Source: a virus
Taxonomy: Duplodnaviria; Heunggongvirae; Uroviricota; Caudoviricetes
DNA length: 17,573 nucleotides
Strand: one strand, 5' to 3'
Virus record (IMG/VR): IMGVR_UViG_2617270950_000003
The position numbers and the translations under genes were made by a program. Numbering within the stretch: the first letter of the stretch is position 1; every line of letters begins with the position of its first letter. The notes under the pieces are model-generated. The model did no database searches and was not told the origin of the DNA. It saw only the letters and a list, made by a program, of their open reading frames with translations. Positions 1 to 11,551 of the stretch are shown piece by piece.

Positions 1-102
1 CATCAATCCAGTTTGAATCATGCAATCCCAAATGGTCTCAGGAACAACAAGACTCTTTCAGGCGGCTTGCTGTATTACTGGATGAAAAATATGCTGGTAA
101 AA

Positions 103-447
103 TTACCATTTCGGCGGACTCTTCAGAGAACCCGTAATTATTCCCGGTAGTTTTCCTCTGTAGGTTATCAACACATCCTGCGCCTCTAAAATTACGGGGC
201 GCTTTTCCGGCGACTGCTCATCCCCTTCACATAACCCGGCAGCAACATCCAGGAAGACCTGTCTGATGCTCCTTCTGGCTGCTGCCTCATAAAACTCCAG
301 CGCGGCACCTTCAACACGGTCCAGCGAGATGTCCAGGTCAAAAATTTCACCGTCAAAGCGTTTTTTGTCCCGTAACGCTAAAGTTACCGTAACTTTATTC
401 TCAAAATTGCGGATCCCTTTCACAATCAGTTCATAGTTTTGAGTCAT
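103..447 (-). CDS. hypothetical protein (114 aa), translationally coupled to the holin; not lysozyme-like
   Basis: ORF track. ATG at 447 lies 4 nt after the holin stop (TAA TTCA ATG) and is preceded by a GGGGAGAG Shine-Dalgarno-like sequence. No SAR/signal segment or lysozyme catalytic pattern visible. No family recognised. Confidence 0.5.
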   Translation of the reverse strand: MTQNYELIVKGIRNFENKVTVTLALRDKKRFDGEIFDLDISLDRVEGAALEFYEAAARRSIRQVFLDVAAGLCEGDEQSPEKRPVILEAQDVLITYRGKLPGIITGSLKSPPKW

Positions 448-451
448 TGAA

Positions 452-667
452 TTACTCTCCCCGTGCCGCCTTACGACGGTCCTCTCTGATTTTGAAATAC
501 AGGTTAGTCAGATATGTCAGCAGCCCAAACAGCAGACTCCCCAGCACGCCTATTGCCGCCCACTGAGACGGGGAAACCCTGTCCAGCAACTGCAGGAACC
601 AGTAGCCCGTTCCCACTGCTGACGTGGTGTATGACACACCTGTTGTGATTTTTTCCATCTGGTACAT
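452..667 (-). CDS. S: class II holin (pinholin), phage 21 S21 / DLP12 EssD family, dual-start motif
   Basis: Internal start [26 protein letters not shown]...[40 protein letters not shown] is near-identical over the C-terminal two thirds to my recollection of S21. Two Met codons (M1, M4) fit a holin/antiholin dual start. ORF track extends to 745, but the upstream extension has no homolog support. Confidence 0.85.
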
Positions 668-817
668 ACCCCGTCTCCCGTTATCCGGAAGCTGACAACA
701 ATAAAAAAAGCCACCAGTTAAGTACTGATGGCTCTGATAACTCATGCAGGCATCTCAGACGACCCACTGACACTACCGGTGAGTTTAACGATACCTTCCA
801 TTTGACTGGCTCACTTT

Positions 818-2316
818 TTATGATGATGCCGGTGCATTTATCTCCAGCACCAGACTTTCTATCTCAACGCCATACGCTGCATTTTTGGTAATATCCGTCA
901 GCGTCAGCGCATTCAGCCCCAGTGTCAGACTGTCTTTTATGACCTGGAATGCCGGGCCAGCCACTCCATTCAGTTTCGGAGTAACCGTGGCACTGCCGGC
1001 GGTGAACACCAGCTCCAGCGTCTGCCAGTCGTTACTGTAATTCCCGAACTCGCCCAACTTTGTGTTTCCGGCTTTCTTGTGATGCATCAGATTCAGTTTG
1101 CCGTCTGTGGTCTGGGTGAAGAACGACATCAGGAACGGGTTACCAGTCCCGGTCATCGCCACGACGTCAGGTAACGCTACATCGGTATAGCGGTTGCCAT
1201 ACGATCCGGAATAATGCTCCTGCGCGCCCATGAACTGAAATGTGTCGGGCGGTTTGATGATACCTGGTTTCCATTCGTTCTCGATGCCGCACCGTAATAT
1301 CCTGATGCCGGAATATCCGGATCTTCTGCCGGTGCGTTAGTGGCGGTATTGACGCCGTTACCGTCTGTCATGAAGGGCACAAAATAAACGCCCTCACTCT
1401 CCCTGTTTTTATACCCGCCGTACACGGTGTCGTACTGGGTAGCGTATGTATTTTTCCAGTAATACGTCGTGTCACCACAAATCCACGGCACATTTACAGC
1501 ACTACCACCATGACACTGCGCGTTAAACACAGTGAGGTCAGCACGAAACTGCTTCAGCATGGCTGTAAACAGCGCAGGTTGCTGTGCGTAGGTGGCGGCG
1601 TTCATGTCAAACTCTCCCTGCATCCAGCACACCGCCAGCAACACATTTTTCGGGTTCTTCTGTAATGCAGCTTTAGTGCGCGCAATCAGGTCCTGATATA
1701 ACGGTTTACCCACACCCCAGCGTGCCGAATCCTGGCTGGCCCCCGCGTCCGCACTGAATGTCCCCTCCGCGCCCTTGGTGAATGCCGAACCACCACGACA
1801 GCATGGTACCAGCAGGATCCCCGCGTTATTCGGGATATACGGGAGCAGTTTTTTGGCAATATGTAAGCCCTGGCCGACACAGCCGTACTGCCCTTTGCTC
1901 AGGTCTGCCTTCGGATGATTCAGCGTACTCATATCCTGCACATCATGCAGACAGTGGTCAGCCGGGATGATGTCGTTATACGTACAACTCTCTCCACCCG
2001 GAGTTACCGTGCTGCGGCGCGCCAGCTGTTTAATGCGCGGATCCGGAGCATCGTAAGAATCCGGTAACGGAAGCCCTTCACCGTAGGCCATGCCGTTGGA
2101 CTGTCCGGCAAGCACAACCACGTAGAACCAGTCCGGCTCAGATGAAGGGCCGACCTGTGGATCTCCTTCAATAGCCACCGCCTGCATCAGTGTGTACGGC
2201 GTAATGGCAACCGGTCCGCCATATGGCTGCCAGCCCTCTTTCAGTTTGTGTGTCAGCTTTTCCGCAAGGTCTGACGGCGACGCCGCCCTGACAACATCAT
2301 AGTGTTTAAATGCCAT
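818..2316 (-). pseudogene. nanS: nanS-p-like sialate O-acetylesterase (N-terminal DUF1737-like region plus SGNH/SASA esterase core), reading frame interrupted
   Basis: The 379-aa ORF (1177..2316) has a strong SD (GGGAGGA) and the esterase-type block VVVLAGQSNGM. The 137-aa ORF (818..1231) continues the protein in a different frame; its frame is open upstream to about 1338, so a single frameshift lies between about 1180 and 1340. Position after the tRNA cluster and before the holin matches prophage nanS-p. Confidence 0.75.
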
Positions 2317-2538: not shown

Positions 2539-2540
2539 GT

Positions 2541-2568
2541 CCATAAGAAAGCCCCTCCGGAGAGGGGC
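2541..2568 (-). terminator. intrinsic terminator candidate (minus orientation) downstream of the tRNA cluster
   Basis: Hairpin gcccctc-cgga-gaggggc; on the minus strand it is followed by UUUCUUAU. Together with 2509-2538 this forms a bidirectional terminator pair in the tRNA-nanS intergenic region. Confidence 0.5.
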
Positions 2569-2805
2569 TGGAGAGTGGCGCTATGTGCCATTGCATGGTG
2601 CCGGGTGCCTCCCGGTGAATTCAGTACCAGCACCTGAATCCGCGATTATCCCATATACCTACTCGCTGATTGCCCCTCCGCACAGGGGGATTCACCATGC
2701 CAGTTTCTTTTAACAAACTCCCCGCAAAACAGACAACTGTCAACCGTCTGAATTGTGAGACATTTAAAAAAAAGGCCCGCAAAAGCGAGCCAGGGAAAAT
2801 AAGTG

Positions 2806-2882
2806 TGGCGCGTTGTACTGGATTCGAACCAGTGACCGATTGCTTAGAAGGCAATTGCTCTGTCCGGCTGAGCTAACAACGC
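2806..2882 (-). tRNA. argO: tRNA-Arg, anticodon UCU (argO-like)
   Basis: Manual fold of the reverse complement: GCGTTGT acceptor, GCTC/GAGC D-stem, anticodon loop CTTCTAA (TCT), GGTTCGAATCC T-loop, encoded CCA. 77 nt. Confidence 0.8.
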
Positions 2883-2895
2883 AGGGTACAGATAA

Positions 2896-2972
2896 TGGAC
2901 CGCCATCGGGGACTTGAACCCCGCGCAGCCAGCTTCGAAGGCTGGCGCTCTATCCTGATGAGCTAATGGCGG
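2896..2972 (-). tRNA. argN: tRNA-Arg, anticodon read as UCG (argN-like)
   Basis: Manual fold: acceptor CCGCCAT/ATGGCGG, D-stem GCTC/GAGC, anticodon stem CCAGC/GCTGG with loop CTTCGAA (TCG), T-arm CGGGG-TTCAAGT-CCCCG, encoded CCA. Anticodon assignment should be confirmed with tRNAscan-SE. Confidence 0.7.
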
Positions 2973-2979
2973 TATGTGA

Positions 2980-3055
2980 TGGTGGCCCTTGCTGGATTTG
3001 AACCAGCGACCTGGCGATTATGAGTCGCTCGCTCTCACCACTGAGCTAAAGGGCC
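2980..3055 (-). tRNA. ileZ: tRNA-Ile2-like, gene anticodon CAT (lysidine-modified type, ileZ-like)
   Basis: Reverse complement GGCCCTTTAGCTCAGTGGTGAGAGCGAGCGACTCATAATCGCCAGGTCGCTGGTTCAAATCCAGCAAGGGCCACCA closely resembles E. coli tRNA-Ile2 (ileX) as I recall it. Anticodon loop CTCATAA. 76 nt with CCA. Confidence 0.75.
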
Positions 3056-10044: not shown

Positions 10045-10892
10045 GGGCGAACCTCCTTGTCAGAACCATTCAGCCTGGAATCAACAAGTGCAGCGCCAAA
10101 AACAGCATCACCAACACGGTCGTACAGTTTGCTAGCCAGCGGAGATTCAACGGCCTTAAGCATTGGATAAAGCTGGCTTGTCCAGATTTGATGGATTTCA
10201 CGCAAATGCAGGTATACGCCTCTGGCGTTTCGTGCGACAGCTGACATATCAGACGTATCGGCACCTGATAAACTCTTCTCCATCAGGTTAAAGGCGTTGA
10301 TGTATGCCTCTTTGAACCGGGCAGCACGTTTACCAGTGAAGCCCATGGCAAGGAACGCGAAGCCATCGCGGGTGATTTGATAGCAAGGTAGTTTGCGGCC
10401 TGATGCGTCGGTGTATTCACTTAACACAAAATTGTGTTCAGTAAATTCAGCGGAACATTCGAGGTTTCTAATTCTATCTAAAACCCGCTCATGCCGTTTA
10501 GTAAAGTAATTAGCTACTGCAAGAGATGTGGTGACAACGCGACCATTGATAATCGTGATTTCAGGGTGAGATTGGGTTGGGAGAGTAGTCATGGTGACAG
10601 CCCCTATGTTGAATTCAATGAACTCACCACCAAGGCTTTCCACGACCATATAGGTGGTGAGACGTACAGGGGTGGAAATACCGGTCAACATAGAACCCGG
10701 CCCAACCGAAATTGGCCCTGCACGCCACACCATAATTTGGGCGTAACGATGCTCATGACACGAAAAAACCGCATGAGCGCGGTTGTGCTCTATATTGAAT
10801 TTCGGGTTTCCACGCCCGGCACCCGCTTTATAAGGTGCAGAGACAGTGTAACGTCCCGAAATTGCAGAATCAATATGCTGGTGGCGGATCAT
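10041..10892 (-). CDS. Rha-family phage regulatory protein (paralog A); Rha core from internal Met at 10592, preceded by a Gly/Pro/Ser-rich extension of about 100 aa
   Basis: Rha-domain blocks IINGRVVTTSLAVANYFTKRHERVLDRIRNL and YQITRDGFAFLAMGFTGKRAARFKEAYINAFN. Whether translation starts at 10892 or 10592 is unresolved. Confidence 0.7.
   Translation of the reverse strand: MIRHQHIDSAISGRYTVSAPYKAGAGRGNPKFNIEHNRAHAVFSCHEHRYAQIMVWRAGPISVGPGSMLTGISTPVRLTTYMVVESLGGEFIEFNIGAVTMTTLPTQSHPEITIINGRVVTTSLAVANYFTKRHERVLDRIRNLECSAEFTEHNFVLSEYTDASGRKLPCYQITRDGFAFLAMGFTGKRAARFKEAYINAFNLMEKSLSGADTSDMSAVARNARGVYLHLREIHQIWTSQLYPMLKAVESPLASKLYDRVGDAVFGAALVDSRLNGSDKEVRP
10815..10876. repeat. 62-bp block near-identical to 11471-11532 (copy 1)
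   Basis: cccggcacccgctttataaggtgcagagacagtgtaacgtcccgaaattgcagaatcaatat; 61 of 62 identities with copy 2 while flanking sequence is diverged. Confidence 0.85.
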
Positions 10893-11551
10893 AGGTGCAC
10901 CTCCCGTTGATTACGACGGAACGCGGAGTGACCCTGGACGGTTTCAGCCTCATGGAATGCTTCAATACAGCTCTCGTAGTACCGCATTGTGCGCAGACTT
11001 AACCCAAGCTGAAGCATCATCAGACCATCAAGGGTGATGTAATAACCACGCAGGGAGTCACCGTAGATGTGATAAGTACCCGGTATGAAATTGCGGGTAA
11101 AAAACTCGCGTGAGCAGTTCAGATACTCGATTTTGTCGACGATGTTCTGGTGCATGCGCTTAAAGTGGCAGGCAACATGCAGGGAGAAAATAACGGCCTT
11201 GCCGTTGACAACTTCAATTTTGAGGAATGGGGAAGTTGGGACTGTAGCCATGATGGCAGCCTCCGTATGCAATGGATAACTTCCACCACCGGAGCTGCGA
11301 AACTCACTGGTGGCAGACTGAACAGGGTTCGCAGTACCGGCGCATACGGAAACCGGCGAGCCTTTCGGCTCCCCTGCCCAGCCCACCATAATTCTGGCGT
11401 GCGTGAGCGCGGACGATAAAAAAGACGCTGGCGCGTCGTATATCGCCGTATGCAATTCCGGGCTGCGACCCCCGGCACCCGCTTTATAAGGTGCGGAGAC
11501 AGTGTAACGTCCCGAAATTGCAGAATCAATATTTGGTCTTGAAATGATCAT
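10889..11551 (-). CDS. Rha-family phage regulatory protein (paralog B, more diverged), with a similar N-terminal extension
   Basis: Core from MATVPTSPFLKIEVVNGKAVIFSLHVACHFKRMHQNIVDKIEYL...YYITLDGLMMLQLGLS aligns by eye with paralog A. N-terminal IDSAISGRYTVSAPYKAGAG is identical to paralog A. ATGA overlap with paralog A. Confidence 0.6.
   Translation of the reverse strand: MIISRPNIDSAISGRYTVSAPYKAGAGGRSPELHTAIYDAPASFLSSALTHARIMVGWAGEPKGSPVSVCAGTANPVQSATSEFRSSGGGSYPLHTEAAIMATVPTSPFLKIEVVNGKAVIFSLHVACHFKRMHQNIVDKIEYLNCSREFFTRNFIPGTYHIYGDSLRGYYITLDGLMMLQLGLSLRTMRYYESCIEAFHEAETVQGHSAFRRNQREVHL
11471..11532. repeat. 62-bp block near-identical to 10815-10876 (copy 2)
   Basis: Direct comparison of the two segments; one mismatch. 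Confidence 0.85.

Follow-up and report, generated by a model that had tools for sequence, protein, structure and literature searches.

Results

Gene order at the left end of the window

The window analysed here is the 17,573-nucleotide stretch of IMG/VR record IMGVR_UViG_2617270950_000003. At its left end the minus strand encodes, in order of transcription, a NanS-p-like sialate O-acetylesterase, an S21-type class II holin and an ORF of 114 amino acids (aa), and the 3' part of a convergent 90-aa gene lies on the plus strand. The NCTC86 prophage matches window positions 1-1300 at 99.5% identity (offset 6000 in locus L001; comparison loci are given L numbers) and allowed the sequence to be extended leftward.

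The holin gene (452..667, minus strand) encodes a 71-aa class II (pin)holin with the dual start MYQM and was identified by Pfam Phage_holin_2_1 (E 2.3e-32) as well as by PHROG holin families. Although the longest reading of this frame is a 97-aa ORF (452..745), relatives annotate the 71-aa form, and the gene is annotated as a 216-nt class II holin in both NCTC86 and strain 700462. Thus the longer ORF up to 745 is probably not used. A consensus scan placed a terminator-like hairpin with a T-run immediately upstream of the holin gene (707..735, minus strand; L001 6735-6707). Sites of this kind are no commoner in the scan than in shuffled sequence, so the hairpin is weak evidence of a terminator, and Q-modified polymerase would presumably read through it.

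The 114-aa gene belongs to the YdfR family

The holin stop codon (TAA, 454-452) is followed by a 4-nt spacer and by the ATG (447-445) of the 114-aa gene (103..447, minus strand). The Shine-Dalgarno (SD) sequence of this gene, GGGGAGAG (455..462, minus strand), lies within the last holin codons. The 4-nt gap and strong SD described in an earlier note on this DNA are therefore borne out. The same 4-nt spacing between holin and 114-aa-type gene is found in K-12 Qin, BP-4795, 2H10, Perceval and Evi, and it is 3 nt in PhiR12_2. Recurrence of the same gene and spacing in other phages argues that the arrangement is not a chance ORF.

The encoded protein scored 145.2 bits with Pfam DUF1327 (PF07041), for which the cutoff is 25, and its residues 1-111 aligned to profile positions 1-91 of 93. 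It also matched PHROG 406 over its entire length (residues 1-114 of 114, E 4e-68). In the NCTC86 prophage the same gene is WP_000193278.1, "YdfR family protein", and DNA copies 100% identical to the window gene bear this RefSeq label. It is essentially certain that the 114-aa gene is an ordinary YdfR/DUF1327 member, and we refer to it as ydfR. NCBIfam contained no model that matched the protein, and a PDB sequence search gave no match even at E 1, so no sequence relative with a solved structure was found there.

The earlier note had pointed to a non-lysozyme gene where the endolysin is expected, a reading that recognition of the protein as a known lysis-cassette component would refute. Novelty fails on this ground, because the protein belongs to an annotated family that is a known, though uncharacterised, resident of lysis cassettes. 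Comparison of cassettes further showed that the arrangement is not unusual, since K-12 Qin and many Stx1 and Stx2c phages have essQ-ydfR-rrrQ as their standard order. Both the gene and the order S-ydfR-R were already known.

The same note was correct that the protein has neither a signal-anchor-release (SAR) segment nor lysozyme features. It is acidic (pI 5.5), has a GRAVY of -0.25 and is predicted to be cytoplasmic, and its highest Kyte-Doolittle 19-residue mean is 0.69, compared with 1.74 (at residue 9) in the neighbouring endolysin R. Accordingly, the 19-residue profile showed no transmembrane, SAR or signal segment. No Pfam lysozyme match was obtained, whereas the true lysozyme of NCTC86 scores 85 bits, and no holin family in Pfam or PHROG matched the protein. 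Without a domain match or a hydrophobic segment, identity as a divergent lysozyme, holin or spanin was rejected.

An AlphaFold2 (AF2) model built from a 29-sequence alignment placed strands at residues 5-14, 18-27 and 34-43 and a long helix at residues 50-73. Averaged in blocks of 10 residues, pLDDT was 64-84 across residues 1-70; in the tail (71-114) it was below 50. The model predicts, with moderate confidence, a beta-beta-beta-alpha fold for a conserved N-terminal domain (codons 1-73; 229..447, minus strand), a unit that is also found as stand-alone proteins of 72-76 aa. The C-terminal tail (codons 74-114; 106..228, minus strand) is predicted to be unstructured from pLDDT and alignments. 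Up to codon ~112 this tail is common to forms of 116, 176, 183 and 268 aa. Megablast matches of most relatives begin at window position 112, and related prophages differ to the left of it. We therefore mark a homology breakpoint between the ydfR module and the antisense-gene cassette around this position (109..115). In alignments with forms that lack a downstream partner gene, a cassette of ~300 bp in the window replaces ~15 nt.

The endolysin gene lies beyond the left edge of the window

The expectation that the endolysin lies past the left edge of the window was confirmed by leftward extension through NCTC86. There, a 177-aa Phage_lysozyme protein with a hydrophobic, SAR-like N-terminal segment starts 242 nt left of window position 1. 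An ATG near position 21 had been put forward as the start of a further gene, and it was considered here as the endolysin start. In the extended sequence the minus-strand ORF at this ATG opens only 25 codons, and the lysozyme gene begins 242 nt beyond the edge, so this candidate was discarded.

In the ydfR-type layout of NCTC86 the start of R is ~690 nt downstream of the holin stop. As a separate observation, R in ydfR-type cassettes starts within AAATATC(C/T)ATG and has no good SD (L001 5760..5800, L015 2346..2395, L003 5055..5062). Phage 933W (S-R-ant-Rz/Rz1-bor) and the S21/R21 genes of phage 21 resemble the window in having the same pinholin family, a SAR-type GH24 endolysin and a coupling of the form GGGGAGAGTAA-N4-ATG. 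The 933W junction reads GGGGAGAG-TAA-N4-ATG, as does that of K-12 Qin before ydfR. In contrast to the window, where ydfR and the antisense cassette are interposed, the coupled gene of 933W is R itself. Because R of 933W uses the strong SD embedded in the holin gene, ydfR displaces R from the coupled start used in that phage.

A convergent gene overlaps the 3' end of ydfR

Positions 1..137 (plus strand) hold 44 codons and the stop codon of a convergent gene and equal the C-terminus of the 90-aa NCTC86 protein WP_000369850.1. The gene continues left of the window (L001 5865..6137), where it occupies the space separating ydfR from the endolysin gene, and it overlaps the 3' end of ydfR by 35 nt (103-137). 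Its product, an acidic three-helix protein, matches PHROG 2411 (E 1e-58), and the gene has a GAGGA SD. Relatives form 62 clusters, mostly of exactly 90 aa, with 71-99% identity, and dN/dS in this frame is 0.36, the lowest among the six frames. AF2 predicts three helices with a mean pLDDT of 77. By these measures the ORF behaves like a real gene. Foldseek with the model of the 90-aa protein returned nothing at E below 1. Scans for a sigma-70 consensus promoter of the antisense gene and for a terminator between the convergent genes in the window version were both negative.

The 90-aa gene resembles lambda bor in being a small opposite-strand gene in the late operon beside lysis genes. In contrast to bor, with which it is unrelated, it encodes no lipoprotein signal and lies between S and R instead of after Rz. 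The database protein ybl58 (L030 3001..3273), which is 44% identical, was considered as a divergent allele and rejected, since it derives from the same gene and differs through two single-base frameshifts that compensate each other. Separately, in L031/L032 (3274..3448) the ydfR N-domain is deleted and a 175-nt remnant lies between the holin gene and an intact antisense gene (73% identical).

Distribution and genomic settings of YdfR

DNA similar to ydfR was present in 4305 of 5426 complete E. coli genomes (79%), in up to 8 places per genome. In K-12, essQ-ydfR-rrrQ-rzpQ of Qin form one coupled cassette in which essQ and ydfR are 4 nt apart and the end of ydfR and the beginning of rrrQ share the sequence ATGA. 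K-12 YdfR (b1555, P76160) is thus similar to the window protein in DUF1327 sequence (77% identity overall, 82% over residues 1-72) and in position: an S21-type holin gene ends 4 nt before it, and the cassette also encodes an rrrQ-type lysozyme and Rz. It differs in its length of 103 aa, in its unrelated tail from residue ~75 and in lacking an antisense gene downstream.

Homologues occupy the same holin junction in BP-4795 (Stx1; ORF47), H-19B (an ORF found by tblastn; 66% identical to the window protein), Stx2 phage 86, 2H10, Perceval, PhiR12_2 and Evi, so that functional lambdoid and Stx phages are among the carriers. The YdfR proteins of these phages measure 72, 104, 114, 169, 183 and 268 aa, and the module that follows is one of several unrelated antisense genes or, in BP-4795, is missing. 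Over the family, form lengths (103, 104, 114, 116, 176, 183 and 268 aa) vary with the downstream module. Only two Stx2a phage records contain a YdfR homologue; 124 records match a 1.3-kb query from the holin region.

A profile search run exhaustively over 1.84 billion protein representatives recovered only 91 relatives. The distant relatives are stand-alone proteins of 72-76 aa corresponding to residues 1-72. Several are encoded in tail clusters: between M and L (L010, L020), between L and K (L007), between the chaperone G/T and tape-measure H genes (L024) or after H (L034, L036). Others lie upstream of other holin families (L005, L013) or after Rz (L026). These settings belong to late operons and lie outside lysis cassettes. 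Single-protein scans of viral contigs for distant homologues found nothing. The ORF, its coupling to the holin and the N-domain core are kept in thousands of genomes, and the core (Y5, V9, K10, N14, V21, the Y53-E54 motif, A57 and A69) is also kept in homologues only ~25-35% identical. Together these distributions argue that ydfR is an accessory late gene able to occupy several places, and in E. coli it has settled in the junction between S and R. In some family entries (P0047, P0081) the N-domain is duplicated in tandem within the protein, and P0189 and P0196 (L013) are distant natural two-domain forms.

Antisense genes and a palindrome accompany DUF1327

In ~15 of 19 distinct DUF1327 contexts a small opposite-strand ORF of 70-182 aa lies directly downstream, either overlapping or within ~45 nt; antisense genes are otherwise rare in these late-operon loci. 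The contexts with such a gene are the window and NCTC86, phage 86, 2H10, PhiR12_2, Perceval, Evi, L004, L005, L007, L010, L013, L020, L021, L024, L026 and L034/L036. Those without it are K-12 Qin, BP-4795/strain 700462, L022/L023 and L025. In 2H10 and Perceval the antisense ORF is unannotated and fills the gap before R.

The partner proteins fall into at least nine families that are mutually unrelated by BLASTP and hhalign. BLASTP, and hhalign run on thin profiles, reached a probability of 6% at best, and common ancestry of these families was rejected, a result that leaves room for very remote homology. Pfam gave no match for the partners, nor did PADLOC for the YdfR forms and six partner proteins. 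The pair moves as a unit: homologous DUF1327-partner pairs occur at differing genome positions (L010 compared with L013; Evi compared with L005; L024, L026 and L034). The window N-domain is 100% identical to that of Perceval and 93% identical to that of 2H10, yet the three have different partner families. Conversely, one partner family accompanies N-domains only 29-53% identical. The N-domain and the partner thus do not co-evolve, and the DUF1327 domain diverges faster than the partner in every within-family pair.

Stand-alone DUF1327 genes carry a perfect, conserved palindrome at their stop codon, AGCGGY-N3-8-RCCGCT (consensus AGCGGCC-N3-4-GGCCGCT), and the stop often falls in its loop. Among 36 loci the exact pattern occurs once each in 13, only at the DUF1327 stop and nowhere else; examples are L019:2220-2237, L004:665-682, L007:4916-4933, L010:5222-5239, L013:5532-5548, L021:314-330 and L026:4222-4239. 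Variants with one mismatch are found in the same place in L020 and L024. In the short forms the palindromic hairpin is usually located between DUF1327 and the antisense gene. AGCGGCC..GGCCGCT is absent from the window even with 3 mismatches allowed, and it is also absent from the long E. coli forms.

Discussion

YdfR as a proposed accessory late protein

In the present study, the gene that follows the holin in the window was recognised as ydfR. We propose that its product is a small cytoplasmic accessory (moron-type) late protein acting via RNase E or RNA, a reading to which we assign a probability of about 0.5. The gene belongs to the Q-dependent late operon of lambdoid E. coli prophages. There it fills the translational-coupling slot behind the S21-type holin, which is the slot of R in 933W, and its product is therefore made together with the holin late in infection. 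R comes further along the operon, past the window edge, and has a weak ribosome-binding site. Because 933W couples R without ydfR and homologues sit in tail clusters, we infer that YdfR is not part of the lysis machinery. The label "moron", offered earlier as one possibility, is a fair one on similar grounds: the same holin is coupled straight to R in 933W, and homologues occur outside lysis cassettes.

Several phage proteins act on RNase E, including T4 Srd, which binds the N-terminal half of the enzyme, Dip (gp37) of phiKZ and gp0.7 of T7. For K-12 YdfR, residues 1-72 were recovered in a bacterial two-hybrid screen and constitute the interaction surface (PMC13232886, 2026). The same study obtained signals with RNase E 1-597 and found that RNase E 1-598 co-purifies with Strep-YdfR (PMC13232886). 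The YdfR eluate contained DNase-resistant nucleic acid, and RNA was pulled down, although the authors allow that a contaminant may have bound the RNA (PMC13232886). Cells overexpressing YdfR grew without defect, and few of their transcripts changed (PMC13232886). The window protein is identical to this RNase E-binding fragment at 59 of 72 residues (82%). By homology to the K-12 protein, characterised in one study, the 72-aa beta-beta-beta-alpha domain would most likely act on host RNA metabolism via the catalytic N-terminal half of RNase E, via RNA, or both. The residues beyond ~73 would be a poorly structured tail that arose where the gene abuts a variable downstream module.

Several points speak against this reading. 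The RNase E results were obtained with K-12 YdfR, overexpressed and tagged, and not with the window protein. The possible contaminant and the near absence of an effect on the transcriptome (PMC13232886) count against it as well. The N-domain evolves faster than its neighbours, which is unusual for a protein docking on a conserved host enzyme. Finally, a genetic screen cited in PMC13232886 ties ydfR to envelope integrity, a link that would be in keeping with a role in lysis.

Among the uncharacterised genes of E. coli prophages, ydfR is one of the most widespread, and the only reported partner of its product is RNase E. For annotators and for surveys of lysis cassettes, S-ydfR-R is to be expected as a standard variant of the phage 21/933W layout, and the interposed gene should not be read as a missing or novel endolysin.

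YdfR and the adjacent antisense genes

The frequent adjacency of antisense genes raises a further possibility, which we hold only tentatively, that DUF1327 provides the constant element of a small mobile cassette able to enter the late operons of lambdoid phages. Such a cassette would consist of the late-strand 72-aa beta-beta-beta-alpha protein, possibly binding RNA and RNase E, the palindrome (in stand-alone forms) and a variable antisense cargo gene that is presumably expressed in the lysogen. The constant gene might control the cargo, or the overlap of sense and antisense transcripts, at the RNA level, whatever the cargo encodes. An RNA-level role of YdfR would fit its independence of the partner. 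The window would then represent a derived E. coli version with a long tail, no palindrome and a 35-nt overlap with a PHROG 2411 cargo. That DUF1327 and the antisense gene form a functional unit is similarly doubtful, though conceivable. If the adjacency does reflect function, it would suggest a general way for prophages to manage lysogen-expressed cargo in late operons.

An alternative, and in our judgement an unlikely one, is a self-immunity pair in which the antisense 90-aa gene is a lysogen-expressed moron for defence or exclusion and DUF1327 is a late counter-factor or regulator. The two would constitute a non-contiguous operon like taiEcA/atiEcA of phi80, in which a lysogen-expressed antisense gene lies beside a late-strand neutraliser (He et al. 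2024, PMC11364771); related cases are known from S. aureus (Rostol et al. 2024, PMC11087260). The architecture therefore has an experimentally proven precedent (PMC11364771), in which a small late-strand gene likewise adjoins an antisense gene that interrupts the Q-dependent late operon. Moreover, a small opposite-strand gene directly follows DUF1327 in most contexts, antisense genes being otherwise rare there, and the pair recurs at different positions with homologous partners. The short partners and the fast evolution of DUF1327 would fit an interface in conflict.

However, the diversity of at least nine unrelated partner families is difficult to reconcile with a self-immunity pair. Cognate protein-protein recognition is unlikely because the N-domain and the partner do not co-vary: nearly the same N-domain is found with three partner families, and one partner family is found with widely divergent N-domains. 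Additionally, YdfR lacks a partner in K-12, BP-4795 and strain 700462, and a partner is also present where ydfR is largely deleted. The pair is convergent here and divergent in phi80, where it precedes the packaging genes, the partners here are diverse, and the scan for a consensus promoter of the partner was negative. PADLOC gave no match, and AtiEcA and TaiEcA have neither a DUF1327 match nor sequence similarity to the window pair, so they were ruled out as homologues.

Lysis regulation and neutral carriage

It is still less probable that YdfR regulates lysis, a role the earlier note had suggested and for which nothing in our comparisons provides support. YdfR would then tune pinholin triggering or the release or expression of the SAR endolysin, for instance by occupying the coupled start, which would leave R poorly translated, or through binding to S or R. 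In E. coli the gene keeps its tightly coupled place between S and R, R in ydfR-type cassettes is without a good SD, and the literature note on envelope integrity (cited in PMC13232886) points in the same direction. In contrast, YdfR is without a membrane segment, and its homologues in tail-gene clusters are far from lysis genes. Cassettes of the 933W type work without ydfR; indeed, lysis by 933W proceeds with such a cassette. The lack of a growth defect on overexpression of K-12 ydfR also argues against this role.

The least probable explanation is that the N-domain gene is a selfish or neutral passenger and the 114-aa form a read-through into the junction with no function of its own in this prophage. 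In its favour, the tail is predicted to be disordered and differs with the downstream module in forms of 103 to 268 aa, some prophages have the N-domain deleted, and the family is very narrow. Against it, thousands of genomes, and homologues only ~25-35% identical, have kept the ORF, its coupling and the core of the N-domain. We retain the accessory late protein acting via RNase E or RNA as the preferred reading.

Additional features of the window

An Rfam scan of window positions 1-800 matched no known RNA family. Upstream of the holin gene, the NanS-p-like esterase (818..2316, minus strand) is split into a 379-aa ORF with DUF1737 and SASA domains (1177..2316, minus strand) and an overlapping 137-aa ORF with DUF6645 (818..1231, minus strand). 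The window copy is probably a deletion or frameshift pseudogene, because NCTC86 has an intact single gene of 617 aa that is ~355 bp longer. Between this gene and a DNA methyltransferase gene lie three tRNA genes (2806..3055, minus strand) with the anticodons CAT, TCG and TCT, the first of which relatives annotate as tRNA-Ile. They are followed by a match to the Rfam sRNA STnc100 (2539..2729, minus strand; 139 bits). Further into the window, the C4 antisense RNA and isrK RNA pair occurs in two tandem copies (10650..10838 and 11306..11494, both minus strand; Rfam, 57-80 bits), located inside or beside two genes for Rha-family regulators.
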